Positions 11,347 through 29,485 of a stretch of DNA of 32,000 nt are shown piece by piece. Numbering within the stretch: position 1 is the first letter of the stretch; every line of letters begins with the position of its first letter. This stretch comes from Candidatus Saccharimonadota bacterium (GTDB lineage: Bacteria; Patescibacteriota; Microgenomatia; UBA1406; GWC2-37-13): the NCBI GenBank assembly GCA_001790095.1, contig MGBH01000001.1, positions 990,001-1,022,000 on the forward strand, in the 5' to 3' direction. The notes beneath the pieces are model-generated. The model ran no database searches. It saw only the letters and a list, made by a program, of their open reading frames with translations, and was not told the origin of the DNA. Both the position numbers and the translations under genes were made by a program.

Positions 11347-11410
11347 TAGATAACAAATATTTTATATTTGAAATGTCTATTTGAGATCTACCATTTGAAA
11401 TTTGACATAT
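11309..11410. terminator. long imperfect heptamer-repeat hairpin between convergent genes (candidate bidirectional terminator)
   Basis: Left arm is tcaaatc tcaaatg tcaaaag tcaaatc tacat. Right arm is atttgaaatgtctatttgagatctaccatttgaaatttgacat. It lies between the HIT gene (+) and the PilX-like gene (-), and overlaps both 3' ends. Confidence 0.45.
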
Positions 11411-15200: not shown

Positions 15201-15868
15201 GCCCCAGCTAATGTATTCCAAGATATGGCAGCATTTGCTCCCCTTGTAGAACAGGAAACAACCACGTTGCTTGTACAGGGAAGTGGGGTTGGAGTGGGAG
15301 TGGATGTGGGGATGGGAGTAGATGTGGGGATGGGAGTGGATGTGGGGATGGGAGTAGATGTGGGGATGGGAGTAGAGCTGGGAGAAAAAACTGTAGGGAC
15401 GGGAGTAGAGCTGGGAGGAACTGTAGGAACTGGAGTATCTCCAGGCTCTTCAGTAGGACTCACACATGCATCACAACAACCAACTACCGAATTATCTCCC
15501 GATCCACCTATACATGGATAATAGGTACTATATTTAGTTGCACAATTACACAGTCCCCCTGGAACAGTTACTTCACAAACTGAAGAGCAAAGTATTGGAG
15601 AGTCACATCCATGAGTCACATTTGCACAATATCCAGTATCAACAGGCCCTATCCATTGACATGATTCGCAGCATATATCTCCAGGATGGTTCCAGCTATC
15701 ACCACTACAACTAGGTCCTCCTCCTACTCCACAATAACCCACTGGACAATCATAAGCAGCATGTAATAGTGTTGGTTTTATCACAAAAAAACTGAAAACA
15801 AATATGTTCACTATAATGAATAGCATTATTTGTTTATTGCTCTTGTTTTTAACACTTAAGATGTTCAT
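12293..15868 (-). CDS. large secreted/surface protein: Cys-rich N-terminal module, Pro/Thr tandem-repeat linkers, TSP1-like motif, unknown C-terminal domain
   Basis: 1191 aa. N-terminal anchor/signal 'IMLFIIVNIFVFSFFVI'. Dense Cys in residues ~40-135. (STPIPT)n and (TPTPTITPGGPTL)n repeats. 'SWGSWGSCSVACGTGNEERTC' at residues ~327-349. Confidence 0.6.
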   Translation of the reverse strand: MNILSVKNKSNKQIMLFIIVNIFVFSFFVIKPTLLHAAYDCPVGYCGVGGGPSCSGDSWNHPGDICCESCQWIGPVDTGYCANVTHGCDSPILCSSVCEVTVPGGLCNCATKYSTYYPCIGGSGDNSVVGCCDACVSPTEEPGDTPVPTVPPSSTPVPTVFSPSSTPIPTSTPIPTSTPIPTSTPIPTSTPTPTPLPCTSNVVVSCSTRGANAAISWNTLAGAAAYAVRLNKSPLGDWNSPAAGDQFIAPVAQPSIYVSVSPDTYYEQALQGIKSGESYPYSGCQTSWAGFTCTGQHVGCTGASCGWIPGYNGGVDTCTPAGTTRTASWGSWGSCSVACGTGNEERTCNPGAENNCACSCSSPSVACGGTDSRSCCIDSSPLQPVVSSVTLYTAAGCTQRYDVDWTFPNNNNGCSQGWGYVCGTRTNQFRLLINGVEVKTGILYTARTDNTISLSAWSGTAQICASNGAAETCSTVYNYNLIAPTCGVSGQSPASGCYNNIPALSASYDTCSDQIQFGVDTDTGFGSPWSCNSGWLASANPVSYASCSVTGTGTYYWGARGRSTAAPIKCTTPAIPAPSRALSIDQTAPTPPGGAAFVSIYPDPDCRENYFASYKWNTTTDGGCGGLNALPYQSEVSTESDYSPLASGWSNSWVNTTQQALQQSYPGGTTFYGRVRARDSFTNTSGWTTTIYTIPTPSPYPTINIQGKYIEDLGTSCSTSMNIDPDQLDLQVTVPPGVTSTCTKTPSNYSCNLIVDNQGGDCIPPCFDMTLSATYGDYGNVDWRQSNQCGGEYLEIITICLLSPTPSPSITPGGPTLTPTPTNAPTSTPTLTPTPVGPTSTPTPTITPGGPTLTPTPTITPGGPTLTPTPTITPGGPTLTPIPTVTPGGPTLTPIPTGEVSPTSTPIPTATPLPPTPTPFGGSITPTPIVPPGVVPTIPVFFSVPSSWLKMGNVSYDNLRSGRSSIIPNNMLKYTDSDTDDTLDKYLIVNNAGGILSAGNLRLGPNATQYSEPNWYNTSYIQLHSFTPTKYAEYMKSRKEYKTITQLADIVGDGIYYVGSDIDINDSSYFVNKKIVLVADQNRIGINIDLNSASVGNAAIAIVARDITISSTVTEVQAILIGNNVTTGNTEDLALKIKGGLVHQSGTPTFENGRQLQNLQRPSLFIAMDQRQYLDLLPYLSISMYDWKQIQ
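13188..13343 (-). repeat. 4 x 39-bp coding tandem repeat (TPTxTPGGPTLTP units)
   Basis: Units at 13188-13226, 13227-13265, 13266-13304 and 13305-13343. Units 3 and 4 are nearly identical. A partial further unit lies around 13408-13440. Confidence 0.85.
15296..15385 (-). repeat. about 4.5 x 18-bp coding tandem repeat (STPIPT units)
   Basis: gggagtRgatgtggggat repeated from 15296 (15296-15313, 15314-15331, 15332-15349, 15350-15367, then degenerate). Confidence 0.85.
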
Positions 15869-15877
15869 ATATTAAAT

Positions 15878-16687
15878 TCAATCAATTCTATTTACAGTAC
15901 TAAACAGCAATAGATTAGGATCCAAGACACCATTTTCTAGAAAGTTCATTAACGAAGTATGATAATTTGGATCTTCTAAAAAAGGCTTCATTACGTTTTG
16001 ATAGAAAACCCAATTAGAATCCATACCTCTAAGACTGGTAAATTGTAGTAAGATCATTACGTCTCCTCGTTGAGCGTTTGAAGTAAAAGGATGTGATTCT
16101 TCAATAAAGCTTTTCCACCAATTAAAATCTTGTAACTGTTCAGGGGTGGGAGCAAAAGTTATACCCGCCTGACTCATAAATGTCGTTGTGGCTTCTATCG
16201 TCTGTCCATTGATATATATTGTGCCATCAGAAGCTCTCACAACAAGGTTTTGCGCAAAATTGACAACCTGTCCATCTATAACATAACTACCTTGAAATCT
16301 AACCAGTGAGTCTCCTACTCTTTCCTCGTTTAAATATAGAGGTTCTGCCCCATATTCTGCTCCATGATAAAAAGCACGTATATTATACCAATCTGTTCTG
16401 TTGTCTCCGCTTTTGGTAGACGAGGCGAAAACATCTTTATATTTAGAACCAACCTTTATTTCAATCTGTTTGTTTAATGGCAATAATGTGAACTTTTTTT
16501 CTTCTTCCTTTTCGCGGATATACTGAACAAGCAGTATCATAATAAAGACAAATTCGATAAAAAAGATAAAGAAGAATAAAAAGAAAATAGGACTTGGTTT
16601 TTTACGCCTAGCGGTGCGAGAAATATCATTATGAAGCGGGTGATTTACAACCATATATTCATTATAACGCAACTGCAGAAAAATCAA
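15878..16687 (-). CDS. membrane-anchored protein carrying the shared ~177-aa C-terminal domain (paralogous to the C-terminus of the 801-aa lipoprotein)
   Basis: 269-aa track ORF that starts at TTG. The more likely start is ATG 16654 (MVVNHPL...), with TATAAT (16666..16661) 6 nt upstream. TM segment 'IFFLFFFIFFIEFVFIMILLV'. Residues 93-269 are almost identical to the C-terminus of the 17974..20379 product. Confidence 0.6.
   Translation of the reverse strand: MIFLQLRYNEYMVVNHPLHNDISRTARRKKPSPIFFLFFFIFFIEFVFIMILLVQYIREKEEEKKFTLLPLNKQIEIKVGSKYKDVFASSTKSGDNRTDWYNIRAFYHGAEYGAEPLYLNEERVGDSLVRFQGSYVIDGQVVNFAQNLVVRASDGTIYINGQTIEATTTFMSQAGITFAPTPEQLQDFNWWKSFIEESHPFTSNAQRGDVMILLQFTSLRGMDSNWVFYQNVMKPFLEDPNYHTSLMNFLENGVLDPNLLLFSTVNRID
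15899..16413. repeat. 515-bp direct repeat, copy 1 (partner 17998-18512)
   Basis: Constant offset of 2099 nt with no indels. 16015-16413 equals 18114-18512 exactly (399 bp, checked line by line). A ~62-bp patch (15954-16014) carries ~23 substitutions. The distal ~55 bp are identical again. Confidence 0.9.
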
Positions 16688-16712: not shown

Positions 16713-18002
16713 ATGGTTAGTTATCTTCCAAAAACCATCTTTGTTTTGTTTTTTACCCTTATTTTTTTACTTGAGGGCCTATCTTTTAAAAAAGGAAGAG
16801 AGATCTCATATGTACTTATTTTGTGTATGCCGTCTTTTTTATTTTACCTTCATTTTATGTTTAAAAATAGAATAAAATTAAGCCCGTTTGTGGGGTTTGT
16901 CAGCGCCCTTTATATTGTGTTTGTTTCGTTGTCTGCTCTTTCCTCTAAACAAATAAACGTCTCTATTGAGGGCGTATTACTTACAATTGCAGTCGTCTCA
17001 CTTTTTATTTATTCTTCATACCATAGAGACGAATTACAAAACATAGTCCTTGCTATGATAATGATTTTGTCATTTGTTTTTATCAGTCGTCATGTTTTGT
17101 ACCGATTAATACCAATTGATTTTGGAGGTCTACTTACTTTATCAGCATTTCAGTTTTTTTACTCTTTTTATCCAAACCATAATCAGCTTGGGACTTTTTT
17201 AACTCTTCCAATAATTACATGTTTTTTTTATCTCTTTTTTACTGCACCTTCTGTAAAGACACCAACAAGTGAGTCGTTTATCAAAAAGACAATGTCGTGG
17301 CTTCTTACAAAAAAACATATATTACTTATACTCTTTTACTTTCCTTTTTTTATTTTTTCTTATTCCCGCTCGAGTTACAATTCCGTATTTTGGACCTTTA
17401 TCCTGATGTTGTTCTATAATAGAAAAATTCTTTTTTCAAACAATTTTTTTTCTAAGAAAAAGATCGTTTTTATTATTTTGTTTGGAATCATTGTTTTGCT
17501 TATGTTTTTTATCACTGTAGAAGAAGTAAAAAGTATTCCGATTATATCTTCTCTTCATGTATGGTTACAAAAATATGCAGGTCTCGGTGGAAAAAGTTTT
17601 CTCTCAGGAAGATTCTTAATGTTCTCTGACATGTTACAAAGAGCTGAAGGAAAATACTTATTAGGGCTCGGCAAACCTCTTATATACTCTCAATCATATA
17701 CTCTCCATACAAATATTGGGTGGCCATCCCATAGTCTGATAGTCGACATCATCGCAAAACAGGGTTTGTTAAGTTTTTTTGCTTTTGTATTACTTCATGT
17801 AGTTATATTTGTCAAATCAGATAAAAGAAGTGTTTTTTTCTATCTCTGGATCAACCTTTTCATTAATTTTCTTACAAATTGGAGCTACACATTCTATTCT
17901 TTATATTGTATATACTTTATCCTACCTGGATTGATCCCTGTTATCCTTTCTTCATCTACTCAAAATAAACAATTTATTCGATCATTCTACCCAATTGACT
18001 AA
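16713..18002 (+). CDS. polytopic membrane protein, O-antigen ligase/polymerase (Wzy_C)-like
   Basis: 429 aa with many TM segments. 'FSYSRSSY' and 'SGRFLMFSDML..GLG..WPSHSLIVDIIAKQGLLSFFAFVLL' resemble the Wzy_C pattern (SR..., R..w, G-x-G, aHN.yl..l.e.G..G). TATAAT at 16701-16706 lies 6 nt before the ATG. Confidence 0.5.
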   Translation: MVSYLPKTIFVLFFTLIFLLEGLSFKKGREISYVLILCMPSFLFYLHFMFKNRIKLSPFVGFVSALYIVFVSLSALSSKQINVSIEGVLLTIAVVSLFIYSSYHRDELQNIVLAMIMILSFVFISRHVLYRLIPIDFGGLLTLSAFQFFYSFYPNHNQLGTFLTLPIITCFFYLFFTAPSVKTPTSESFIKKTMSWLLTKKHILLILFYFPFFIFSYSRSSYNSVFWTFILMLFYNRKILFSNNFFSKKKIVFIILFGIIVLLMFFITVEEVKSIPIISSLHVWLQKYAGLGGKSFLSGRFLMFSDMLQRAEGKYLLGLGKPLIYSQSYTLHTNIGWPSHSLIVDIIAKQGLLSFFAFVLLHVVIFVKSDKRSVFFYLWINLFINFLTNWSYTFYSLYCIYFILPGLIPVILSSSTQNKQFIRSFYPID

Positions 18003-20379
18003 ACAGCAATAGATTAGGATCCAAGACACCATTTTCTAGAAAGTTCATTAATGAGGCATGATAAGTTTCATCATTTAAGAAGGATGCCATAAAATTTTGA
18101 TTGAAAGTCCAGCTAGAATCCATACCTCTAAGACTGGTAAATTGTAGTAAGATCATTACGTCTCCTCGTTGAGCGTTTGAAGTAAAAGGATGTGATTCTT
18201 CAATAAAGCTTTTCCACCAATTAAAATCTTGTAACTGTTCAGGGGTGGGAGCAAAAGTTATACCCGCCTGACTCATAAATGTCGTTGTGGCTTCTATCGT
18301 CTGTCCATTGATATATATTGTGCCATCAGAAGCTCTCACAACAAGGTTTTGCGCAAAATTGACAACCTGTCCATCTATAACATAACTACCTTGAAATCTA
18401 ACCAGTGAGTCTCCTACTCTTTCCTCGTTTAAATATAGAGGTTCTGCCCCATATTCTGCTCCATGATAAAAAGCACGTATATTATACCAATCTGTTCTGT
18501 TGTCTCCGCTTTCTTGAGAGGAGATAAAGACATTTTCAAGAGAATCCATACCCTGCTCTTCTGCCATTTCTTGCACTCTTGTTTCCCATAGCTTTGCGTC
18601 AGCTTCTCTAACAACCGATAAATCTGATAGAGCTATCTGAGATGTATCTTTAGGAGTTTGCACCCAGACTGATACATCACGATTTTGATCTACGAAAAAG
18701 GGGTTACTAAGACCAATGGTTATGTCTGCTTCTCCTTCTTGAATAATAGTTACAGAAAGTCCATCTTCTGAGATACGTATTGATCCATCAAATACCGCGC
18801 CTCCGGCAGAGGAAGAAAAACTCGCAAGCTCTGTCCTATCCACACTGCCCCCTCTTTTGCTGATAAACCCTTCGCTTTGCAATATCCAGTTTCCGTCTCT
18901 TTGCAAGAGATACAGCTTATTGCCCGATGATCCGTCTTGAGATGATATAAATACCAAACCGCTTTCATAGGATCCTTCTGTTTGCACTTCCATCTGTGCA
19001 TGCAAAGCTCTGTTTGGATTTGCATCAACAGTAAAACTACCAACCCCTGCACTTTCTCTATAGATAGTTGACTCCCCGATAAGCTGCTGCTCAACGACCG
19101 ATGGCGCATCAATCTGAGGGACTCCATCCAAATTACCCGTATACTCACTTATCGGCATATATGCTGCATGCTGTACTCCATCATTTTCATAGGTTACTAC
19201 AACAAACGTGTCACTGATAACACCTGTTGCTTGTATGACTACTCCCTCTGCTGGTGAGTTAAGTGAGTTTGCAAAAGAGTCAGGCATGTCATATATACGT
19301 AGTGTACCTGTGCTTGTCATCGTTTCAGCTACTTCTCCTGACTCTTGTGTTGATTCTTGTGTCGGTTGCCCTGCTACTGGCTGATCTGCGGCAACGAGCA
19401 TGATATCAGGATTTATACGGGTGACATTGACCCAACTCACCAAAGCTCCATCATTGTTATAATATCCAAGTATGATTTGAGTAGTGGAAGGATCACCGTC
19501 TCCTAAATTGTCATAGGTTAAATAAGGATGAGTGCCTGGCGGCGCCTCAACCACAGCAAGCTCAAGTAGATCATAATCTGTGGCACTTAAGCCCTGAGGT
19601 AAAAGTGATTGAAATGGAAAAAATGTTTGTGCGCTTTCATCCCAAACTTGCGGTAGGATAAAATTATTTGTACCTCTTTCAAAAAAAGCCATTGACCATC
19701 CATCCTGAGGCACTGAACGGGTTATGTAATAATAGTGCTGATCAAACCAACTCTGGATCGCATCATCTGAGGCAGGATCAACCTGTTCGTTTGGGTGAGC
19801 GATATTCCAATCCTGTACCAGCTTATTGGTCATCAGCTGTAGATATTGTGTTGCCAGCTGTGCTCTGTCGGCAGAATATTCTGGGTCCGAGGAATCAAAA
19901 ATGTGCGGTCTATCAGGATCATAATACGTATCAGAACTATCTATGTGTGATCCCATCCTGCTCACATTTACCCCATCAGGAATCGGTGCAAAATTGCTTG
20001 AGCTTGCTGGATATGCATAAACAAGTTGGCTTTCTGGAGTATTTGTTACAGTTGAAGTAGCTGTAGATTCTTGGGTATTAGTAGCGTGTAAAGTAGGCGT
20101 AGCCCTTTCTTGAGTTGAAGTAGCTGACGCTGTAACTGTGGGAGTAGCAGTATCAGTAGCTGTAGATGTAGATGTAGCTGTAGCTGTCTCAGTTTCGGGT
20201 GCTCCTGGACTTCCGCATCCTGCCAACACCAATGATGCTGCAGCAGGCATTGCCACTCTTGCAATAGGAGATCTCATTATCTGTCCACCATAAACAGCTG
20301 GCTTTACACCAGCTCCGTTTACGTTACTAATTGCACTTTTATCAAGGTTTTTTGAATGACGCGTATGCAACTCACCCAT
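17974..20379 (-). CDS. surface lipoprotein with Thr/Ser/Ala-rich linker and shared C-terminal domain
   Basis: 801-aa track ORF. The likely true start is ATG 20277 (MRSPIARVAMPAAASLVLAGC, lipobox LAGC), preceded by GGTGGA. Low-complexity 'ETETATATSTSTATDTATPTVTASATSTQERATPT' follows the lipobox. The last ~178 aa are shared with the 15878..16687 product. Confidence 0.65.
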   Translation of the reverse strand: MGELHTRHSKNLDKSAISNVNGAGVKPAVYGGQIMRSPIARVAMPAAASLVLAGCGSPGAPETETATATSTSTATDTATPTVTASATSTQERATPTLHATNTQESTATSTVTNTPESQLVYAYPASSSNFAPIPDGVNVSRMGSHIDSSDTYYDPDRPHIFDSSDPEYSADRAQLATQYLQLMTNKLVQDWNIAHPNEQVDPASDDAIQSWFDQHYYYITRSVPQDGWSMAFFERGTNNFILPQVWDESAQTFFPFQSLLPQGLSATDYDLLELAVVEAPPGTHPYLTYDNLGDGDPSTTQIILGYYNNDGALVSWVNVTRINPDIMLVAADQPVAGQPTQESTQESGEVAETMTSTGTLRIYDMPDSFANSLNSPAEGVVIQATGVISDTFVVVTYENDGVQHAAYMPISEYTGNLDGVPQIDAPSVVEQQLIGESTIYRESAGVGSFTVDANPNRALHAQMEVQTEGSYESGLVFISSQDGSSGNKLYLLQRDGNWILQSEGFISKRGGSVDRTELASFSSSAGGAVFDGSIRISEDGLSVTIIQEGEADITIGLSNPFFVDQNRDVSVWVQTPKDTSQIALSDLSVVREADAKLWETRVQEMAEEQGMDSLENVFISSQESGDNRTDWYNIRAFYHGAEYGAEPLYLNEERVGDSLVRFQGSYVIDGQVVNFAQNLVVRASDGTIYINGQTIEATTTFMSQAGITFAPTPEQLQDFNWWKSFIEESHPFTSNAQRGDVMILLQFTSLRGMDSSWTFNQNFMASFLNDETYHASLMNFLENGVLDPNLLLFSQLGRMIE
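17998..18512. repeat. 515-bp direct repeat, copy 2 (partner 15899-16413)
   Basis: See copy 1. Confidence 0.9.
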
Positions 20380-20418
20380 ATTTTTGAGATCGGAAAATAT
20401 AACCTATATTAATAGTAT

Positions 20419-20447
20419 ATTATCTCATAGTTTTGTCAAGCTGTCAA
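20419..20447 (-). promoter_or_regulatory. sigma70-type promoter, TTGACA-17 nt-GATAAT, upstream of the lipoprotein gene
   Basis: On the minus strand: TTGACA (20447..20442), a 17-nt spacer, then GATAAT (20424..20419). A second overlapping TTGACA lies at 20439..20434. Confidence 0.55.
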
Positions 20448-20493
20448 TGATTTTTCGCTTTCCAACGGTCTATACATAACAAATATGTATATG

Positions 20494-23400
20494 CTACATC
20501 ACGTTCTGAAACTGCATTTTTTGTAACATCTCCATGACTCTTTCATTCCAAATAGCGCCTTGTTGTGCGGGGGTTAGACTGGCGACTTTTCCTTCAATAT
20601 CTTCCAGTCTGAAAAAATAATACGCTTCATCCAACACGTCCTGGAAATCACTCCACATTTCCCGCTTCATTTCATCAGCCATAGCTTCTTTCCCCGCTCT
20701 CATCCTGTCTGGTAGATTCGAGGCTGCCTCTGTCACAGCAAGAACACCTGAAGGTAAAACCTGAATCTTTCCTCGGACATGAGGCGGGAGCTGAACCTGA
20801 GCTGTTCCTAGCTTGGCTACTGCAAGTCCTAATGGAGTTCGACCCTCAGCCATATGGATGCCATGAGATTCGCGCACGCGAGCTGGTAAAAACTCATCAA
20901 GCCATGATCCTGCAAAGGTGATTTGAGGTAATTTTAGACCCGCTTTTATAAGACTTTCTGACCCTCCTTGTGGAGGAGCGGGTTCAATAAGAATTTGCCC
21001 CTTGTGCGGATCTATTGTCTTTTTAACCGAGCGTTCTGACAGCTCCGTCATAACTCTCACATATTGGTCCAACTTCCCCATAAATGCCATCTGCCACTCA
21101 CGAAGCCGTACATCTTTGATACCTATGTCAAGCAATGCCCTTTTTCTTTCTTCCTCTTGAGCACGAAGGTGAATGAGGTGCTCTTGAAACAGCTCTGTTT
21201 GCGCTTCATTGTCTCCCTTGATAGCCTGTTTCCAAAGATATTCAAATCGTTTGAGGCGTTTTTCGTGGAGCATATCTGCTCCATAGGCCCATTGTGTCAG
21301 GGGCGGTATAGATATCCTATCTATTAAATAAGCATTAGCAGGATCTCTTATATCTTTTTCTGATAATATCAAGTGTCGTAATCCTGGAATATCGCCCCTG
21401 CCTACACGCTGCAATTCTTGCCAAAGCTCGCGCTCAGTTGTGGCTCCTGACACAAATACCTCAGGCCCTCCCCGATCAATCACAGCCTCTTCCAGATTGT
21501 CCAATTGAAAATCCCGACGCGTCATTTGGCTCGTGATGACGATCGTGCCTGCGGTACAACCTGTTAAGGCCTTTTGAAGCGAACCACGCTCTTCAAGCTC
21601 TTCAGATGCAGTCACGACCCGAAGCCATGGTGGCCTCTCTATAGGAAGAGCTACTTGTGAGCTATCTCCTAGTTTTATTTGACGAAGCACCCGAAGTGCT
21701 CTCGGCCCACTAATTTCACGTTCTGCTTCTTCCATACTAACTACTCTCTGCTCCACTGTGTCTTCCTTACCCTTACCCTTACTAAGAAGTAAAAGGTGTT
21801 TTAAGATTTCTTCCTCCCTTGCCTCCATACTTTCTTGATTAATGAGTATTGATCCAGATTCATTTAACATTTTGATCGCTTGTTCTAAAAGATGTGCCTC
21901 CTGTGCATCGCGCATGATAAAAAGACCAACTCTTCCTTCTCTTTGGATACGTTTTGCCTCTTGAAAAAGCCTAAGCATTTTTCTTTCCTCAGATACAAAC
22001 ATCACATCAGCCAATCCTCCATCTAGACAGGTGGTTTGAAGGGTGTCGATTTTGTGTTTTGGCTGTCTTACCTGTTCATGCCTTTCTATTCTCAACACCT
22101 CAGCCTCATAAATATCCGCATAAGAGGATGCTACAGGGATAAGAGAACCTGAGGTAAATCTCAGCTTTTTATATTGTTTAAAGAGCTCAATAGGCGCTAC
22201 ACTATTGGTCGTACGCGACACCTTCATCTCATTAACAACTCGGTCGTAAAGGAGTTGAAACTGCGCATTGTCAATCCCCCTTTCTTTTTTTTCGTCCTGC
22301 TCCCATATGTTTTTTAACCGCAAAAAGACTTCATGTAAACCCTCAAGTTGTCTCTTTTGAAGAGGAAAGCCGCTCTCATCAAGGAGCGTTGCTTCTTTAC
22401 CGCCCAGATACTGCTTCTGCTCCTCTGATGCAAAAACGGTTTCAAGGGCACATCTGATCATGTCTGCGTCCTGCTCAACTATCACGTGTCTTGTTTGTGT
22501 ACCTCCACTTTGCGGGTCGGTTGAAAACTTAAAATATGATTGATTAATCTTGCTTAATACATCCTGAAGAATAGCTGAGGCTCTGTTATATGCTCTTTCT
22601 GATAGTTTTATGTGATCTCCTGCTTTAAAATAGTCCCTACCCTCACCTTCTTCAAAAAGATCCTTATATTCATATAGAGCATCCCAAAAACTAATAAGTA
22701 TTTCTTGTGTAATCTCTTGTCTTAAATCAGAAGGCATTGTCTTTCTTTCGAAACCCTTTATTTCTTGCATGGTTCTATCTCTTAAAGAGGAGGGTTTTCG
22801 TTTTTTTCTAGATTTTCTTATTTCTTGCGCAAGCCTATTTCGTTCCTCAACAGGCATTATGTCTTGTTCTCTTTGAACCTCTCTTATTCCCATCCATTTA
22901 TCAATATATTCCCATGCTTTTGCTCCCTGGATCGTCTCACTTTGGATCCATGTCTCATGGGCACGATCAAGCATCTCATCATCTGCTTCCTGCACAAGCG
23001 CTATTCTCCCCTGTTTGCTGTAAAAACCCGGGTCAATGGCTGTCACAGTTTTACCTGGTTGATAGTATTGAGACGCATGATCAAGATAAGTAAAACCGAC
23101 AGCATCAGTGGTTGCATATAGTATGGTGCTGTCCCAAACTTCCTGATGAGCTTTCTTGCCTTTTTGGGGGACTAGTTTACCGTTTTTATATATATACTCC
23201 AACCTTGTCCCCACAGGATCTCCTCCCCTCTCATTTTCTTCAACAGATAGATCTGTAGCCACACCTACTCTTATCCCGAGTTTTTTTGAATAAAAATCTC
23301 CTATGTTTTCTGCATGCTCCAAAGCTTTTGCATAAGATTGTTCAAGGATATGAACTTTTTCTCCCTGAAGGGCAAACATTGCTGCGATAAGCGCATTGGC

Positions 23401-23919
23401 TTCTGTTTTTCCCTCTCCCGTATCAAGCTGGATACCCCTGTTATCTGTCTCAAGTTTGCCGAATATATACTCACCCTTATTCAAAAGCATCTGCGTCATA
23501 TAACAAAGCTGGTTGTCGCGAAACACAAACTTCTTTCCCCTTTCAGCGGCATGCTGCTCATACAAAGCAGCCATATAGGCAGTTGTATCTTCAGCCCATT
23601 GGAGCTCTTTTTCTCCCCCTTTTGGAATACTTTTCCATCCTTCCCTTAATCTTTCCGTCACTTTTTGTCGTTTTTCTTGTTTTATCGCGGTTTTTTTATA
23701 TTGACTACGTAATTCTTTTATGGTTGGAAGAGAGTAAGTATAAAATTCATCCTGCATTTTGCCTGACCTGTCAATTGAGGCGAGTGTGCCAAACCACCCT
23801 TCTGCAGTTCTTTTTTCTTGCCAAGAAAAAAAACCTTTTGTTTGAAAAGGGTCATAGACCTTGGAGCGTTTTCTTTGTGGGGATGGATCTCCTTGTAGTC
23901 CTGTCTCTACTACTTGCAT
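20494..23919 (-). CDS. highly diverged SecA-family (SecA-like / accessory-SecA-like) protein
   Basis: 1141 aa, colinear with SecA (consensus recalled from memory). The pairs below give this protein first and SecA second. 'LDTGEGKTEANALIAAMFALQGEKVHIL' versus MRTGEGKTL..YLNAL.GKGVHVV. 'ILYATTDAVGFTYLDH' versus ITYGTNNEFGFDYLRDN. 'ALVQEADDEMLDRAHETWIQS' versus [20 protein letters not shown]. 'LLDESGFPLQKRQLEGLHEVFLRLKN' versus IVDEFTGR.M.GRR.S.GLHQAIEAKE. 'TSQMTRRDFQL' versus TNMAGRGTDI. 'GRGDIPGLRHLILSEKD' versus GRQGDPGSSRFYLSLED. Several catalytic-motif residues are substituted. There is an extra ~130-aa N-terminal extension. Confidence 0.7.
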   Translation of the reverse strand: MQVVETGLQGDPSPQRKRSKVYDPFQTKGFFSWQEKRTAEGWFGTLASIDRSGKMQDEFYTYSLPTIKELRSQYKKTAIKQEKRQKVTERLREGWKSIPKGGEKELQWAEDTTAYMAALYEQHAAERGKKFVFRDNQLCYMTQMLLNKGEYIFGKLETDNRGIQLDTGEGKTEANALIAAMFALQGEKVHILEQSYAKALEHAENIGDFYSKKLGIRVGVATDLSVEENERGGDPVGTRLEYIYKNGKLVPQKGKKAHQEVWDSTILYATTDAVGFTYLDHASQYYQPGKTVTAIDPGFYSKQGRIALVQEADDEMLDRAHETWIQSETIQGAKAWEYIDKWMGIREVQREQDIMPVEERNRLAQEIRKSRKKRKPSSLRDRTMQEIKGFERKTMPSDLRQEITQEILISFWDALYEYKDLFEEGEGRDYFKAGDHIKLSERAYNRASAILQDVLSKINQSYFKFSTDPQSGGTQTRHVIVEQDADMIRCALETVFASEEQKQYLGGKEATLLDESGFPLQKRQLEGLHEVFLRLKNIWEQDEKKERGIDNAQFQLLYDRVVNEMKVSRTTNSVAPIELFKQYKKLRFTSGSLIPVASSYADIYEAEVLRIERHEQVRQPKHKIDTLQTTCLDGGLADVMFVSEERKMLRLFQEAKRIQREGRVGLFIMRDAQEAHLLEQAIKMLNESGSILINQESMEAREEEILKHLLLLSKGKGKEDTVEQRVVSMEEAEREISGPRALRVLRQIKLGDSSQVALPIERPPWLRVVTASEELEERGSLQKALTGCTAGTIVITSQMTRRDFQLDNLEEAVIDRGGPEVFVSGATTERELWQELQRVGRGDIPGLRHLILSEKDIRDPANAYLIDRISIPPLTQWAYGADMLHEKRLKRFEYLWKQAIKGDNEAQTELFQEHLIHLRAQEEERKRALLDIGIKDVRLREWQMAFMGKLDQYVRVMTELSERSVKKTIDPHKGQILIEPAPPQGGSESLIKAGLKLPQITFAGSWLDEFLPARVRESHGIHMAEGRTPLGLAVAKLGTAQVQLPPHVRGKIQVLPSGVLAVTEAASNLPDRMRAGKEAMADEMKREMWSDFQDVLDEAYYFFRLEDIEGKVASLTPAQQGAIWNERVMEMLQKMQFQNVM

Positions 23920-25051
23920 AGTTATTATTGTATACCATAGAGCCTTTATGAGCCAGGAGATTTTGATAATGATATAACATGTGTTTTGCGTGGTAGTTTT
24001 TTATCCGTCTCAAAGATTGATCCGCATAATAATCGCGGATATGTCTGTCTGAAATAATAGTTGACATGTGTTTGGCCAAGCTCTTACTGTTTTGCATGGG
24101 AAACAACAAACCATATTTATTTTTTCCCAGGATCTCCCCTGGACCATAAGGAGTATCTGAACTTATGACTGGCAAACCGTAGGACATCGCCTCAAGTATG
24201 GCATAAGGGTACCCATCCCAGAGTGAAGAATAGACAAAACAGTCAGCCTTTTTTAGCAGTCGTCCTACATCATGCTGCCAACCATAAACAACTATGCGTG
24301 ATGAGATGTTTAGCTCGTTGATTTCTTTAAGTATCTTGTTTTTGTCTTCTCCATCTCCTACAAGATATAAATATGCTCTGGAGTACTTTTTTGTTATGGT
24401 AGAAAACGCCTTTAAAATCGTTGCTATGTCTTTTTGAGGGGAGAAGCGTGAAATGGTGATAAATATAAAGTTCCTTGAAGGTGATTTTTTTCTCGTAGGT
24501 ATTCTTTTTGTACCGTTATATATAACTTTAATCTCATGTTTTGGATAAAAGTACTTCTCCAAACCGCTTTTAACCCCCTGGGAAACCGCTATATAGATAT
24601 CGCTCTTGTCGTGAAATATAAGTCTCCCGGCCACCTTTAATAAAGGTATTAATACAGAATTCGATTTTGTCTTAAAAACCATCTCTACATTATTATGAAA
24701 AGTAAAAATGCTCTGTTGAGGAAACCAATTTATAAGCTTAACCAATCTCCATAATAAGCCTGCATGAAAATCAACACAGAGTACTTTATCCGGCTTCTTC
24801 TTTTTAACAAGCGCACTTATTAATACTATTTCTTTACATAGCAAAAAGAGGTTGGAGGGGGTCAGTGCATAGAAGGACGGAAGACTCTTTTTTGAAATAT
24901 AGGTGATATTGTGCTTTATTTTGCTTTCAACAGGTGACGGAGAAGGCTCCAGACATACAGTATGAAACTCCATGCTTTTTATGTTTGTAAGCTCTAAGAT
25001 AAACGTTCCAGTACCGCCACTTACACTTTTTGTAATAGTAAGGACCATCAT
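23852..25051 (-). CDS. GT4-family (glycosyl transferases group 1) glycosyltransferase
   Basis: 399 aa. N-terminal 'SVSGGTGTFILEL'. C-terminal-half motif 'YPYAILEAMSYGLPVISSDTPYGPGEIL' is typical of GT-B/GT4 enzymes. The 3' end overlaps the SecA-like ORF start by 68 nt. Confidence 0.8.
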   Translation of the reverse strand: MMVLTITKSVSGGTGTFILELTNIKSMEFHTVCLEPSPSPVESKIKHNITYISKKSLPSFYALTPSNLFLLCKEIVLISALVKKKKPDKVLCVDFHAGLLWRLVKLINWFPQQSIFTFHNNVEMVFKTKSNSVLIPLLKVAGRLIFHDKSDIYIAVSQGVKSGLEKYFYPKHEIKVIYNGTKRIPTRKKSPSRNFIFITISRFSPQKDIATILKAFSTITKKYSRAYLYLVGDGEDKNKILKEINELNISSRIVVYGWQHDVGRLLKKADCFVYSSLWDGYPYAILEAMSYGLPVISSDTPYGPGEILGKNKYGLLFPMQNSKSLAKHMSTIISDRHIRDYYADQSLRRIKNYHAKHMLYHYQNLLAHKGSMVYNNNYASSRDRTTRRSIPTKKTLQGL

Positions 25052-25086
25052 GTGTAAATCATTGTATAATACAAATCGTTGATCTT

Positions 25087-26352
25087 ATGCATATAATATT
25101 TCTACTTTTAATCCTTGTTCTTAAACTTCCCTCATTTTACTTTCTGCCTTCCTCATCTTCCCTATTTACAAGCCACTCCCTAGTAAAAATAGGGGTCGTG
25201 CTTATTGCTATGTATATGTTGTACGATGAAAAAATTCGAAGAGCGGCAGGGCGAGCAGTTTTGTCAAACATGCCAATTATCCTTTTCTTGTTTTCGCAAT
25301 CAATCTCAGTCATATGTGCGAAAGATGTTGGATTGTTTTGGAAAAGTTACCATAATTTACTTATCAGCATCCTTATCTTTTTTAAGGCTGCGCTGTTGTT
25401 TGGAAAAAGAAGAAATCTTATTGTCCGTTTTTTATTTTTAGTTGCCATTATAACGACAGGGCTTGAAGTGGCTCTATATCTTGTCCCCAAAGATCTATTC
25501 AGACTCTTGCCTTTTCAGAGCGAAATCCTTGATGCCTTTATCGTTAATCTTGACCGCAACAGATTTTCATTTGAGTCTCATAATGAATTTTTACTTCTTG
25601 TTTTGTTGTTTGTTTCTTTTACTTCCTTGTCCAAAAAAAGGAGATTCGTTGGCCTGATCATAAGCGTAGTATTGATCGCTTTATCGTTTTATTCATCAAA
25701 TCGCACTCGACTCATTTCGCTTATGGGTGCGTTGATATTTTTTATAGTTTCTTTTTTCCATCTTCGTTTCATAAATCATAAGGGAAGATCTGCTAATATT
25801 GTCTTTACTCTTATAGCTGCTTTTGTCTTTGTATTTATTCTATTTCCTCCAAGAGCAATGTTTGAAAGAATTTTTGCTCCCTCTGAGTCCTCTGATTATG
25901 AAACGATTATTTTCCGTATCGATTCGATCAAACACTCTGCTTTACTTCTTCAATCTTCTCCCTTGCTGGGGGTTGGTCTTGGAAACTACCCCCTATATCC
26001 AGCAATACATAGATATGTCCCACCATATGAATTTGGCAAATCAGCTCAAAACAGATATGACAAAGCTGTTCCAGCCTCACCACACAATATATTTGCTCAA
26101 GTTGGTGCTGAGACAGGAATTGTTGGTTTGGGATCGTTTGTTTTCCTCATTTTCTGGTTTATCAGAAAAGACGTAGAGATGTGGCGAAAAGGTAAAGACA
26201 TAAAGATGGTGCTTTCGTTTTGTTCGTGGATTATATTCTTAACTTTTCTTTTCAACCCATCTCATACACTGTATATATCTGGATGGTTTTGGTTTTTAAG
26301 AGGAGTTATTTATTCTAAAAATCATTCAATCCCCTTGATCACAAAATCATAG
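25087..26352 (+). CDS. O-antigen ligase family (Wzy_C domain) membrane protein; PglL/WaaL-like
   Basis: 421 aa, polytopic. 'YSSNRTRLISLMGA', 'GVGLGNY' and 'SPHNIFAQVGAETGIVGLGSFVFLIFWF' match the Wzy_C signature well. TGTATAAT lies at 25063-25070 upstream. Confidence 0.7.
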   Translation: MHIIFLLLILVLKLPSFYFLPSSSSLFTSHSLVKIGVVLIAMYMLYDEKIRRAAGRAVLSNMPIILFLFSQSISVICAKDVGLFWKSYHNLLISILIFFKAALLFGKRRNLIVRFLFLVAIITTGLEVALYLVPKDLFRLLPFQSEILDAFIVNLDRNRFSFESHNEFLLLVLLFVSFTSLSKKRRFVGLIISVVLIALSFYSSNRTRLISLMGALIFFIVSFFHLRFINHKGRSANIVFTLIAAFVFVFILFPPRAMFERIFAPSESSDYETIIFRIDSIKHSALLLQSSPLLGVGLGNYPLYPAIHRYVPPYEFGKSAQNRYDKAVPASPHNIFAQVGAETGIVGLGSFVFLIFWFIRKDVEMWRKGKDIKMVLSFCSWIIFLTFLFNPSHTLYISGWFWFLRGVIYSKNHSIPLITKS

Positions 26353-27203
26353 AAAGAGTAGTGTGGGGTAGTGATAGTCAGGTATTTTCCCGGAATCAGT
26401 GTCTGCTCTTGGGCAAAGATAAGATTGCCGTCTTTTTGCTCCACCATAACCTTGGCTTTTACGGTGATGCTTATTCTTTGGGATGAAACAGAGGGGTCAA
26501 TAAAACGACCCTGCTCGACAGCAAAAGCCTGCGTATCGTCCCCCACGGCTTTTTCAGTAATTTTAAATACCGCATCTGTACCATCAAAATAGGTATCTCC
26601 CACACGTATGCTTTCATACTCCCACGGATGGGCATATTTTTTTTCTAAAGTAACTGTTTTGTGTTCGTAAACCTCACGAAAAGGAACCGTATCTATCTGC
26701 GTAACCGTGCCGCTTATAAAAGATGATGAAAGATCCAACTCAATCGGCATCCCCACACTTATGGGAGATCTTTTAAAACTATAGCTTCCGGATCTTCCCA
26801 TGCTTGTCACTTTGAGACGGGTTGTGATATATACATCAAACTGGTTGGTGATTCCGTTTATTGATCCCCATGGATAATAACGCACCGACAAAATCTCTGC
26901 AACTGGTTTGCCAATTATGTCTTTCTCGAGAACATTATTTTTTATAGCTTTGACAAACCAGACAGGAGCTTTTGCAGTTGAAGCCCACCACATACCCTGT
27001 CCAAGCTTGACTCTTGCATATATATAGGTTGGCTTTGTCACAAACAGTTTATATAGAGAAACTAATCCTACAGACAGTATGCAAAGGATAAAGATCCCAA
27101 CGATATAGTTTTTGTAAAATAAATGAAGAAGTTTCTTAATAGCTCTTTTGTTCCTTTTTGTCTTCATATGCGTATAATATAGCAAATGAAACACAAATCT
27201 CAA
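26322..27203 (-). CDS. membrane-anchored hypothetical protein
   Basis: 293-aa track ORF. The likely start is ATG 27167 (MKTKRNKRAIKK...). Single TM 'IVGIFILCILSVGLVSLYKLF', followed by a beta-rich extracytoplasmic region. No family recognised with confidence. Confidence 0.5.
   Translation of the reverse strand: MRFVFHLLYYTHMKTKRNKRAIKKLLHLFYKNYIVGIFILCILSVGLVSLYKLFVTKPTYIYARVKLGQGMWWASTAKAPVWFVKAIKNNVLEKDIIGKPVAEILSVRYYPWGSINGITNQFDVYITTRLKVTSMGRSGSYSFKRSPISVGMPIELDLSSSFISGTVTQIDTVPFREVYEHKTVTLEKKYAHPWEYESIRVGDTYFDGTDAVFKITEKAVGDDTQAFAVEQGRFIDPSVSSQRISITVKAKVMVEQKDGNLIFAQEQTLIPGKYLTITTPHYSFYDFVIKGIE
27173..27179. promoter_or_regulatory. overlapping divergent -10 boxes (TATAAT on +, TATTAT on -) in an 18-bp divergent gap
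   Basis: Plus strand: TATAAT at 27173-27178, 7 nt before ATG 27186. Minus strand: TATTAT at 27179..27174, 6 nt before ATG 27167. Confidence 0.35.
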
Positions 27204-28013
27204 ACCCTATTGCCTCAATCTGAAGTGATACTTTTTATTGCTGGGTTTTATATCAGGATTATTTTTGAACCATTTGAATTCCTATACGGCCAACAACAGT
27301 TTATGAAAGACTTTCTCACTATGTATGCAGGATTCATCATCAAAGGACCCATACCAAAAACTGATTATTTACTTCGAATTATTCATGCAAAAAACTTGAT
27401 TACATTATTCCGTAAGAAGGAAAACCTAGAGTTTATTTTATATGTAAAAAATATGAAAGAAAATCGCTGTACTACTTTTCATCATATAAGCTCCTCTCAA
27501 CTTCAAACACTTTTTAGAAAAATCCTTCTTGCTCTTTTGGCAAAACATGACGGGTTCCTTTTACATACGTCTGCGGTAAAGATTAATCGCTTAGCATATC
27601 TTTTTTTGGGAAAGCCTTATGCTGGCAAATCAACCTCAATGAAGCTCCTAAAAAGTAGTTATCCGCCTCTTGCTGATGATACGGGATTTATAAGGAAAAT
27701 AAACAATGATTATCTTTTCTTTCAAACTCCTTTTGTTGAAAAAGAGCATTGGATAAAAAAAGGATGGCGAGGGCTTGCTTTAGGGAAACTGTGTTTCTTG
27801 CGCAAATCCAAATCCTTTCATCTGAAAAAGATTGCTGATAAACATGATGTTTTACATCTGTTAATGCGGCAATTTTTTACTGAACAAGAGCATGCAAAAA
27901 AACAGACAGACTACCTTTTTGACTTTGTAAAAGGGTTTGATGAGTTTTATATACTTTCTTTTGCGAAAGATAAAAGAAAATTTATTGAATTTATGACCAC
28001 TCATGCGATATAA
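27186..28013 (+). CDS. HPr-kinase-C-terminal-domain-like P-loop protein (HprK-related kinase)
   Basis: 275 aa. 'FLLHTSAVKINRLAYLFLGKPYAGKSTSMKLLKSSYPPLADDTGFI' parallels the HprK/P core (hG..v...g.gvLi.G.SG.GKSe.al.L...g..LvaDD.v.i). The stop overlaps the PqqD-like start by 11 nt. Confidence 0.6.
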   Translation: MKHKSQTLLPQSEVILFIAGFYIRIIFEPFEFLYGQQQFMKDFLTMYAGFIIKGPIPKTDYLLRIIHAKNLITLFRKKENLEFILYVKNMKENRCTTFHHISSSQLQTLFRKILLALLAKHDGFLLHTSAVKINRLAYLFLGKPYAGKSTSMKLLKSSYPPLADDTGFIRKINNDYLFFQTPFVEKEHWIKKGWRGLALGKLCFLRKSKSFHLKKIADKHDVLHLLMRQFFTEQEHAKKQTDYLFDFVKGFDEFYILSFAKDKRKFIEFMTTHAI

Positions 28014-28266
28014 AATAGAAAAGGGTTTAATTGCACAACGCACAACAAAAAGGATGACTGTCTTTGACTCAAAAAATTTAACTTTTTTTACCTTCAATGA
28101 AACCGCTCTTTATATTTTTAATTGCCTTAAAAGGGGGTTTGATGACAAAGAATTGGTAAAACGAATGATGAAACGCTATCAGATAGATAAAATACAGGCT
28201 GAGAAGGATTTAGAAGAATTTATACAGCTCTTGAAAAAGGAAAAAATCGTCTCACTAAAGAAATAA
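28003..28266 (+). CDS. PqqD-family protein (RiPP recognition element, RRE)
   Basis: 87 aa. 'TVFDSKNLTFFTFNETALYIFNCLKRGFDDKELVKRMMKRYQIDKIQAEKDLEEFIQLLKKEKIV' fits the PqqD pattern (..LN.ta..iw.l.dG..t..el...l...y.v....a..D...fl..L...gli). Confidence 0.8.
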   Translation: MRYKIEKGLIAQRTTKRMTVFDSKNLTFFTFNETALYIFNCLKRGFDDKELVKRMMKRYQIDKIQAEKDLEEFIQLLKKEKIVSLKK

Positions 28267-29485
28267 GAATGACCCGTATATTTTGGAATATCACCCAATA
28301 TGCAGCATAAATAACTTGCGGATCCGCAAAGATTTGCACCTTTTTGCTCCAATGGTTTGGTGATAGGTGATACAGATACATAAACCTTTCTATACCAGCT
28401 TTGATTCGTGTTTGATCATCAAATACTACTGTGTGCAAAATCTTTTTATTAAAATATATTTTGTACTGCTTTTCTATAGGAATTCCTTTTATGAGAGAAC
28501 TTAAAAAAGGGGCCGTTTCGGGAAAATATTTTTTAAGTAGAAGAAAAGTAGCATATATATAGTTTTGCATTCTCAGTGTTTTAATTTTTTCTTGTATTGA
28601 ATGAACGTATCGCTCGCTTTTTTTACTTCTAACTATTTTACGTAATAACTCTAGTCGAAAAACTCCTCTATAGTTATGGTGAAAAAAGTGAAGTGCAAGA
28701 TAGATAATAAGATTTTCGGTAGAAAGGATGGGAATCGAATACTCCTGAATTATTATGGTCCTTTTTTCATTGAGACACATATCAGTAAATACGTCTATGA
28801 GGCTCTGTGGATATAGATTTTCAGATCGACTAAGTTGCGTCATCATAAACACTGCCTCTCTATGAAGATCAAATACTACGAACATTCCGTTGATGATTTT
28901 ATAATATGCGTTTTCTACTGTTTTACCTTGGAGTTTTTTCTGGGTTTGAGAGAGCGCTGTGTCTGATTTTTTATATCCTGTACTTAACAGGACCTCTTCT
29001 GCTTTTAAAAAATCTTCTTTTTTTACCAAAAAATCACAGTCCATATATATCCTTTGAGGGTGGGTTTTTTCAAAGTGTAGATGAAGAGGTAGCCCTTTAA
29101 GGATTACAAACTCTATTTTTTCTTTTTTGAATTTTTCCGCAAGGATCACTATTTGCTGGAAATAGAGAGTTGATTGTACAAGATAAAGGTCTTGAATTTG
29201 GACAATCTCTCCGTTTCTTTTTATGCTTTTAACTTTTGCAACCACTTGATCTGCTCTTATCTTTCCATCTGACTTGAGATTGTTGTCGCCTTTGGTAATA
29301 AGGTATTTCTTATGTCTGTCTTTGTATATAACCCTATGGGCAAAAAGAGTTGCTTGTTTTCTTGTGATTAGTATGTCGTTTATTTTGATATTGATTTTTT
29401 CCCGAGGGTCATAGAAGATAGTATCTTTAGTTTTAATAAGAGGATACATGCTCATACCTAACGAGCGTATGGATGATAGGGTCAT
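28220..29485 (-). CDS. fusion protein: SipW/Sec11-type (S26B) signal-peptidase-like domain + 'uncharacterised nucleotidyltransferase' (NTP_transf_5-like) domain
   Basis: 421 aa. N-terminal ~100 aa carry 'GMSMYPLIKTKD', 'AHRVIYKD' and 'ITKGDNNLKSDG', the S26B Ser/His signature order, with no preceding TM segment. The remainder has 'VILKGLPLHLHF..PQRIYMDCDFLV', typical of the nucleotidyltransferase family (KG...R..DiDlLV). Confidence 0.6.
   Translation of the reverse strand: MTLSSIRSLGMSMYPLIKTKDTIFYDPREKINIKINDILITRKQATLFAHRVIYKDRHKKYLITKGDNNLKSDGKIRADQVVAKVKSIKRNGEIVQIQDLYLVQSTLYFQQIVILAEKFKKEKIEFVILKGLPLHLHFEKTHPQRIYMDCDFLVKKEDFLKAEEVLLSTGYKKSDTALSQTQKKLQGKTVENAYYKIINGMFVVFDLHREAVFMMTQLSRSENLYPQSLIDVFTDMCLNEKRTIIIQEYSIPILSTENLIIYLALHFFHHNYRGVFRLELLRKIVRSKKSERYVHSIQEKIKTLRMQNYIYATFLLLKKYFPETAPFLSSLIKGIPIEKQYKIYFNKKILHTVVFDDQTRIKAGIERFMYLYHLSPNHWSKKVQIFADPQVIYAAYWVIFQNIRVILISLVRRFFPFSRAV

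Follow-up and report, generated by a model that had tools for sequence, protein, structure and literature searches.

Organization of the locus

We analysed a 32,000-nt stretch of DNA assigned to a Candidatus Saccharimonadota bacterium (assembly GCA_001790095.1, contig MGBH01000001.1, forward-strand positions 990,001 to 1,022,000; hereafter the window), which encodes a SecA-like protein and, directly downstream on the same strand, a large Thr/Ser-rich lipoprotein (Table 1). A previous interpretation from the letters alone (the sequence-only reading) had described the SecA-like gene as a full-architecture but strongly degenerate secA paralogue, possibly encoding a dedicated export factor or a non-catalytic scaffold for glycosylated surface proteins. 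Several local details of that description were confirmed. The 3´ end of a family 4 glycosyltransferase (GT4) gene overlaps the start of the SecA-like gene by 68 nt, as had been noted, and the adjacent gene called Wzy_C/PglL-like encodes a protein in which Pfam detects a Wzy_C domain. The lipoprotein gene, said to have its own strong promoter, encodes a lipobox, LAGC, at residues 52-55 (nt 20215-20226), and the promoter-like site ahead of it (20447-20419) agrees with the consensus at 11 of 12 positions, carries an extended -10 TG and is the best such site in 17500-25500.

The DNA of the SecA-like open reading frame (ORF) is the same in six independent assemblies (NCBI, ENA, JGI) and is therefore not an assembly artefact. 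Its upstream ATG start is backed by N-terminal residues that are invariant among the homologues described below (M1, E5, R18 and D23-P24-F25).

Table 1. Features of the SecA-like locus, in coordinates of the window
Feature	Position (nt)	Strand	Residues	Basis and remarks
SecA-like gene	20494..23919	-	1141 aa	ATG start; NCBI A2334_05985, labelled 'hypothetical protein'
Walker A, GEGKT	23404..23418	-	aa 168-172	E. coli G105-T109; invariant in 24/24 family members
VGFTYLD			aa 274-280	SecA-like protein
Altered Walker B/DEAD box, QEAD	22981..22992	-	aa 310-313	Opposite DEVD in hhalign alignment
Enlarged PPXD-like insertion in NBD1	22210..22932	-	aa ~330-570	hhalign, collinear with E. coli ~221-377
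TSGSL			aa 589-593	SecA-like protein
NBD2 motifs V and VI	21376..21537	-		hhalign alignment; key residues invariant in 24/24
ERELWQELQRVGRGDIPG			aa 829-846	SecA-like protein
C-terminal all-helical domain	20518..21297	-	aa ~875-1134	Secondary structure from AlphaFold2 model
Promoter-like site, TTGACA, 17-nt spacer, TG-GATAAT	20412..20447	-		Between SecA-like and lipoprotein genes
Thr/Ser-rich lipoprotein gene	17974..20379	-	801 aa	As ORF; from translation
GT4 glycosyltransferase gene	23852..25051	-		Pfam Glycos_transf_1, E=1.1e-34
Wzy_C-domain polytopic membrane protein	25087..26352	+		Pfam Wzy_C, E=1.3e-14; ~9 transmembrane segments predicted; weak TfpM match

The window protein is a SecA homologue over its N-terminal ~870 residues

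The Pfam model SecA_DEAD matched the window protein above its cut-off (E=1.3e-14, 54.6 bits against 24.6) over residues 89-589, a match stretched by a large internal insertion. When the profile of a 24-member family was compared by hhalign with 15 canonical SecAs, including that of E. coli, the probability of homology was 100% (E=1.3e-54), and the alignment was collinear between family columns 44-809 and SecA columns 22-625, which comprise the first nucleotide-binding domain (NBD1), the preprotein-binding domain (PPXD) and NBD2. A Foldseek search of the PDB with an AlphaFold2 model built from the family alignment (pLDDT 74, pTM 0.75) gave SecA or SecA2 structures at all of ranks 1-36, other superfamily 2 (SF2) helicases appearing first at rank 37. 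The top matches were SecY-engaged SecA complexes (6itc_A, E=2e-20, TMt 0.63), and structures of the 'SecA2-only' type were among the significant matches, at ranks 20, 25 and 27. The window protein is a true SecA homologue over its N-terminal ~870 residues.

Of the hidden Markov model (HMM) searches that the sequence-only reading had suggested as a check, SecA_DEAD upheld SecA homology together with the hhalign and Foldseek results, while SecA_PP_bind and SecA_SW did not match; P-loop_SecA and SEC-C likewise gave no match on the window protein. The NCBIfam SecA and SecA2 models matched only around Walker A and far under their cut-offs, with 22.6 bits for TIGR00963, the canonical SecA equivalog (cut-off 800), 32.5 bits for PRK09200 (cut-off 862) and 25.8 bits for TIGR04221, the Mycobacterium SecA2 equivalog (cut-off 725), of which the protein is not a member.

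The SecA motifs quoted in the sequence-only reading are all present, in SecA order. The PPXD-like insertion terminates in LLDESGFPLQKRQLEGLHEV (aa 512-531), which corresponds to IVDEHTGR..GLHQ of SecA. Motif V reads ITSQMTRRD (aa 795-803), with R802 equivalent to E. coli R509, and motif VI is ERELWQELQRVGRGDIPGLR, in which Q834, R838 and R841 are the counterparts of E. coli Q570, R574 and R577. The claim of a full architecture with every landmark stands for NBD1, PPXD and NBD2; for the C-terminal ~280 aa, homology to the SecA scaffold and wing was not demonstrable. The N-terminal extension, put at ~130 aa, proved shorter, at ~40-60 aa: the Walker A Lys, residue 108 in E. coli, is residue 171 of the window protein, and hhalign pairs family column 44 (window residue ~58) with SecA column 22 (E. 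coli residue ~20). This extension carries a conserved motif of its own, DPF...EGYFG..S.DRS.

The C-terminal domain occupies the place of the SecA scaffold, wing and two-helix finger. In the model, long helices (875-968) are followed by a low-confidence segment (968-1068) and two further helices (1069-1134); the insert at 968-1068 is variable and is deleted in one family member (P0003), and it stands at the position of the wing. The predicted topology agrees with that of a scaffold in which the wing has been replaced and a helical hairpin follows, and the whole-chain Foldseek alignments extend over ~1100 columns with helices at the corresponding place. Homology was not demonstrable, however: hhalign of the domain against the SecA C-domain gave a probability of 0.7%, which is not significant, and the domain modelled alone (AlphaFold2, pLDDT 88) retrieved only generic long-helix PDB matches, the best at E=1.8. 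The LRGYAQ.DP fingertip motif is absent from the window protein, as is a zinc-finger (SEC-C) tail.

The nucleotide site is remodelled in a conserved family

An HMM search of 1.84 billion representative proteins returned ~29 clusters at E<=1e-30, followed by a sharp fall to SecA relatives at ~1e-18. Family-specific patterns identified 8 loci in 241 million metagenome records, and a scan of GTDB representative contigs with a generic Walker A pattern gave, among the matches listed, at least 78 canonical SecA loci and at least one true relative. The only named sources of family members are two Roizmanbacteria, and the remaining loci share synteny with the window. We aligned 24 members, 21-33% identical to the window protein, and found 23 columns invariant and ~37 nearly invariant at an overall identity of ~30%, the deviant motifs included. 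The gene belongs to a real, conserved, remodelled SecA-derived family, and the earlier description of it as strongly degenerate does not hold, as the deviant motifs are themselves conserved.

Invariant in all 24 members are GEGKT, E311, S590, R613, R802, Q834, R838, R841, G846 and R848. E311 corresponds to the catalytic E210 of E. coli SecA, and Q310 takes the place of D209. Immediately ahead of the catalytic Glu, 22 members have Q, A, S, T, G or C, and the Walker B Asp is kept only by the other two, which are the most divergent and most SecA-like; D209 and E210 are both invariant in the 15 canonical SecAs. As judged from the alignment, the nucleotide site is intact but for one specific family-wide change, that of the Walker B Asp, and the conservation pattern suggests that the remodelled site is under purifying selection. 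The E. coli SecA D209N variant binds ATP without hydrolysing it. Given this precedent, slow or regulated hydrolysis would be expected of the window family. The proposal that the protein is non-catalytic or altered is borne out in part: the Walker B Asp has been lost from 22 members, and the remaining nucleotide-site residues are invariant.

The family is fast-evolving. Between genomes with 57-60% identity in their aldolase, HIT and PBP proteins, the SecA-like proteins share 30-33%, a rate of change similar to that of the surface-cluster genes and about twice the divergence of the housekeeping neighbours. A phage or mobile origin was rejected, as tblastn against 50,697 phage records gave no match to the SecA-like protein, IMG/VR yielded no relatives of the family, and PADLOC had no match for the gene or its neighbours. 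We also noted that the SecA-like gene of one relative (L097, 6523-9520) is broken into two overlapping ORFs, by either a frameshift (a possible pseudogene) or an assembly error.

Our literature search found nothing on SecA-like paralogues in Roizmanbacteria, Patescibacteria or the Candidate Phyla Radiation (CPR), and candidate phyla are not mentioned in a 2017 survey of SecA2 and SecY2. One member carries the JGI label 'preprotein translocase subunit SecA'; overall, the present labels are 'hypothetical protein' or, misleadingly, SecA. The family is so far undescribed and adds to the theme of accessory SecA proteins.

A lipoprotein gene lies directly 3´ of the SecA-like gene

The gene pair was compared across 11 loci with downstream sequence, in which the SecA-like proteins of the relatives are 28-64% identical. 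The loci named for this comparison are the window and L007, L008, L009, L088, L090, L091, L093, L094, L095, L097 and L099; L096 and L007 are one locus, as are L098 and L091. A co-oriented lipoprotein gene lies directly 3´ of the SecA-like gene in 10 of the 11, at spacings from a 4-nt overlap to 186 nt. The partner lipoproteins are 500-800 aa long and have the lipoboxes LAGC, LAAC, LASC, LTGC, LPGC, LGAC, LSAC, LTAC, TTAC or the weaker ATVC. Sub-clades of the SecA-like proteins track the types of lipoprotein partner.

The lipobox Cys lies at position 47-71 of every partner precursor, which leaves an N-terminal extension of 30-60 aa ahead of it. The partners of L008 and L094 align from residue 1, and those of L090 and L094 gave a single BLAST match, residues 18-85 against 14-90 at 38% identity. 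When aligned, the extensions display a basic start, an h-x-[N/D]-h-[N/D] patch and a near-invariant Pro, followed by the hydrophobic segment. This pattern suggests that the extension is translated and constrained.

Six of the partners have a GH10 domain or are related to one; the window partner and four others are without GH10. In the window lipoprotein, 57% of the 60 residues past the lipobox Cys are Ser, Thr or Pro. BLASTP, Pfam and PDB searches detected no relatives of this lipoprotein. Homology to the other partners was considered and set aside, as these same searches gave nothing and the architecture alone is held in common.

The window also contains a partial second copy of the lipoprotein gene. 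A 269-aa ORF at 15878-16687 (-) duplicates, at 81% amino acid identity, the final 209 codons of that gene (17974-18600 (-)), with 96% nucleotide identity over a 516-nt BLASTN match. Between the copies is an ORF on the opposite strand (16713-18002 (+), 30% GC, ~10 transmembrane segments, no Pfam match), possibly Wzy-like. A strain variant (L002) has neither of these ORFs and encodes a hybrid 800-aa lipoprotein instead. This arrangement, together with the hybrid, suggests repeat-mediated recombination in the surface-protein locus.

Glycan-assembly genes are frequent neighbours

Genes for glycan assembly (GT4, WecG, GT2, epimerase, AsnB and Wzy_C) were found within 10 kb in 7 of the 8 loci with enough flanking sequence. 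The Wzy_C protein of the window belongs with the O-antigen ligases, polymerases or O-oligosaccharyltransferases. At 56.6 bits against TIGR02918 (cut-off 574.6), the GT4 does not qualify as a GtfA orthologue, and all of its NCBIfam matches are sub-threshold. The gene directly upstream of the SecA-like gene varies between loci, encoding GT4, a 279-aa membrane protein, NTP_transf_5, an HPrK-like protein or a GDSL lipase. Of the neighbourhood whose conservation the sequence-only reading had suggested checking, the 3´ lipoprotein gene (10/11) and the nearby glycan genes (7/8) recur; the upstream neighbour is not always GT4. In the +/-10 kb around the SecA-like gene, no secY2- or asp-like genes were detected: Pfam showed neither SecY nor Asp families there in the window, L007, L008, L088, L090 and L091. 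The surroundings of the gene in the window are cellular, with glycolysis genes, PBP, HIT and PilX-like genes, and the window contains no Rfam families or tRNAs.

Comparison with known SecA systems

The window family shares with housekeeping SecA (E. coli, B. subtilis, T. maritima; 6itc, 3din, 1tf5) the DEAD motor fold of NBD1 and NBD2, a PPXD set in NBD1, the order of the motifs, Walker A, the catalytic Glu, the arginines of motifs V and VI and a long helical domain after NBD2. The differences are extensive. Identity in the structural alignment is ~13%; the Walker B Asp is replaced; MTGTA has become TSGSL, and GRGTD is (H/R)RD in the family; the PPXD is ~90 aa larger and NBD2 has an insert at aa ~690-760. 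The window protein also differs in its N-terminal extension, in the variable segment that replaces the wing and in the missing SEC-C tail, and NCBIfam and Pfam models of the SecA C-domains fail to match it.

To our knowledge, accessory SecAs have so far been found only in Gram-positive bacteria (Firmicutes, Actinobacteria), and all known ones have a canonical ATPase site. The closest parallel is with the 'SecA2-only' systems (Mycobacterium, 4uaq; C. difficile, 6sxh; Listeria), in which an additional SecA-family ATPase, next to a canonical SecA that we presume for the window genome, acts with no dedicated SecY2 and serves a particular set of surface or cell-wall proteins, a dedication suggested for the window family by gene adjacency (10/11 loci). 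The mycobacterial SecA2 also has no wing domain. In C. difficile, S-layer and cell-wall proteins are exported by SecA2 through the general channel (PMC7503281). Known SecA2s, however, are active ATPases that share 35-55% identity with SecA1 and have the DE of Walker B intact, whereas the window family adjoins the gene of its presumed substrate, a lipoprotein, and belongs to a CPR lineage. Its extreme divergence, lost Walker B Asp, enlarged PPXD, unrecognisable C-domain, CPR lineage and lipoprotein partner set the family apart from every known SecA2.

The likeness to the accessory Sec system (aSec; SecA2/SecY2/Asp1-3/GtfAB of streptococci and staphylococci) is only partial. In both, a SecA homologue is clustered with GT4-type glycosyltransferases and a Ser/Thr-rich surface protein, whose precursor begins with a signal region of unusual length. 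Unlike aSec, the window family has no SecY2 or Asp genes within +/-10 kb and a GT4 that is not GtfA; WecG, Wzy_C and the epimerase resemble a lipid-linked pathway that operates outside the cytoplasm, not the glycosylation by GtfAB inside it; and the presumed substrate is a lipoprotein, often with GH10, and not a serine-rich-repeat adhesin.

The next-best matches to the family profile (E ~1e-18 to 1e-11) were short SecA-like proteins of ~640-670 aa (DEAD, PPXD and P-loop_SecA), which share the motor and the PPXD. These differ from the window family in that they match SecA Pfam models at 200-240 bits and have no C-terminal helical domain; the window family is longer and far more diverged. The short proteins, none of them encoded in the window, form a large, apparently uncharacterised group with neither scaffold nor wing. 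Giants of ~1500 aa with SecA_DEAD and P-loop_SecA were found as well, again encoded outside the window; the proteins noted in these two groups include P0036, P0037, P0040 and P0157-P0163.

A proposed dedicated accessory SecA and its alternatives

We propose that the SecA-like protein is an accessory SecA-family member, similar to the 'SecA2-only' type, that is dedicated to the large lipoprotein encoded directly downstream, and we assign this reading a probability of about 50%. The protein would bind the lipoprotein precursor in the cytoplasm via its enlarged PPXD and clamp, and the likely handle is the long N-terminal stretch that precedes the precursor's hydrophobic segment and lipobox. The precursor would be kept export-competent and delivered to, or driven through, the housekeeping SecYEG; no second SecY is encoded nearby. 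Once exported, the lipoprotein would be lipidated, and the neighbouring GT4/WecG/Wzy_C machinery probably adds glycans to its Ser/Thr/Pro-rich linker. The remodelled nucleotide site likely makes the protein a slow ATPase or an ATP-dependent switch, which may depend on canonical SecA if translocation is to be processive. It is by inference that we assign the protein its substrate binding, its use of SecYEG and its ATPase behaviour, and the lipoprotein its glycosylation. The sequence-only proposal of a dedicated export factor or SecA scaffold for glycosylated surface proteins is thereby retained in part: SecA ancestry and the conserved lipoprotein pair favour it, while the absence of SecY2 and Asp and a GT4 that is not GtfA count against an aSec-like system.

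Several observations weigh against this proposal. Without its Walker B Asp, the protein would be expected to hydrolyse ATP poorly at best. As the alignments and models did not reveal a scaffold with a two-helix finger in the C-domain, docking to SecY can only be presumed. A canonical SecA in the same genome is one that we infer. A single lineage seems to be the source of all the loci, which have synteny in common (HIT-aldolase, PBP, PqqD module), so that adjacency may partly reflect inheritance, and one locus (L091) is without a downstream lipoprotein gene. In the window lipoprotein gene, a Shine-Dalgarno-like GGTGGA precedes an alternative start, M35 (nt 20277); if this is the real start, the window copy would have a standard 21-residue signal peptide and no extension. 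Finally, an unrelated 406-aa lipoprotein in the window (2860-4080 (-); lipobox LVGC, Cys at position 37) has a fairly long n-region of 23 aa, and somewhat long lipoprotein n-regions may therefore be a trait of the lineage.

A more specific version is that the protein is a hydrolysis-impaired SecA paralogue that serves as a targeting adaptor, reading the leader-like extension of one lipoprotein precursor and handing it to the general SecA/SecYEG; we regard this as a tentative possibility against which the odds still lie. If true, it would be the first accessory Sec in CPR, the first for a lipoprotein and the first SecA family without the Walker B aspartate. The dedicated-export proposal makes the SecA-like protein and the lipoprotein a concrete substrate-factor pair, and the conserved pairing with a large surface lipoprotein, often with GH10, points to a surface enzyme that is specially treated by tiny bacteria dependent on a host or community. 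A CPR family that keeps all nucleotide-site residues except the Mg-coordinating Asp would also provide a natural experiment on the need of SecA for ATP hydrolysis, and on how the PPXD and clamp build substrate specificity.

The main rival, which we consider rather unlikely, is that the protein binds ATP with essentially no hydrolysis and performs no translocation of its own, either as a SecA-derived chaperone or scaffold that keeps the precursor of the lipoprotein in the cytoplasm, with modification or timing as possible purposes, or as a specificity adaptor that heterodimerises with housekeeping SecA. The absence of the Walker B Asp from 22 of the 24 members (the binding residues being invariant), a C-domain that is not demonstrably a two-helix-finger scaffold and the missing SEC-C tail are all consistent with this rival, which the gene-pair evidence fits equally. 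An interaction between SecA1 and SecA2 is documented in mycobacteria (PMC4457860) and would be a precedent. The invariance of the catalytic Glu and all of the arginine fingers, however, is hard to explain if hydrolysis is irrelevant, and the whole-chain model fits SecY-engaged SecA best.

A different alternative is that a SecA-fold ATPase was taken into another job (for example in glycan or RiPP biology or in inter-organism conflict) and that the lipoprotein gene is a mere syntenic neighbour. In several loci the gene sits between a PqqD/NTP_transf_5 module resembling those for ribosomally synthesized and post-translationally modified peptides (RiPPs) and the GT4/Wzy_C cluster; there are weak Pfam matches to GT4-conflict families; evolution is fast, as for the neighbours; and all loci are from one lineage. 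We nevertheless find such a role improbable. PADLOC and the phage and viral searches returned nothing, the lipoprotein gene is kept 3´ in 10 of 11 loci despite divergence past recognition while the upstream modules vary, and the PPXD, the domain with which SecA binds preproteins, is not merely retained but enlarged.

That the protein is instead the only, housekeeping SecA of a fast-evolving lineage, as the JGI label on one member might imply, is very unlikely, although the arguments against it are indirect. SecA is a near-universal bacterial marker, and TIGR00963 is part of the GTDB bac120 set. The window protein scores 22.6 bits against the 800-bit cut-off of that equivalog, is without an Asp that is invariant in canonical SecA and is about twice as diverged as its housekeeping neighbours; the family is also extremely rare in databases, although Roizmanbacteria and other CPR genomes are numerous. 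P0038, the best canonical-type match to the family profile, was considered as a possible CPR SecA and rejected, its relatives being SecAs of Chlamydiota and Verrucomicrobiota.

Decay into a relic or pseudogene, which the many substituted canonical motifs and the frameshift-split relative L097 might suggest, is effectively refuted by an unbroken frame of 1141 codons that is the same in six assemblies, by the conservation of 24 members at ~30% identity (23 invariant and ~37 nearly invariant columns, deviant motifs included) and by a fold predicted with confidence.

Other conserved modules in the neighbourhood

The RiPP-like module of the window (26322-29485) comprises an HPr-kinase-like 275-aa protein (27186-28013 +), PqqD (28003-28266 +) and a 421-aa protein (28220-29485 -). 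The last has NTP_transf_5 at aa ~103-321, and its N-terminal ~90 aa resemble archaeal-type signal peptidase I. In L088 (2901-9939), the same module lies directly upstream of the SecA-like gene together with two radical-SAM genes, a ScmC-like gene and a 55-aa ORF.

Downstream of the lipoprotein gene, the window encodes a 1191-aa protein with a Cys-rich N-terminus (12293-15868 (-)), the C-terminal ~300 aa of which recur in proteins of L009 (422 aa) and L091 (549 aa). Next comes a conserved PilX_N-like protein of 262 aa (11410-12198 (-)), and the two constitute a second conserved surface gene pair.

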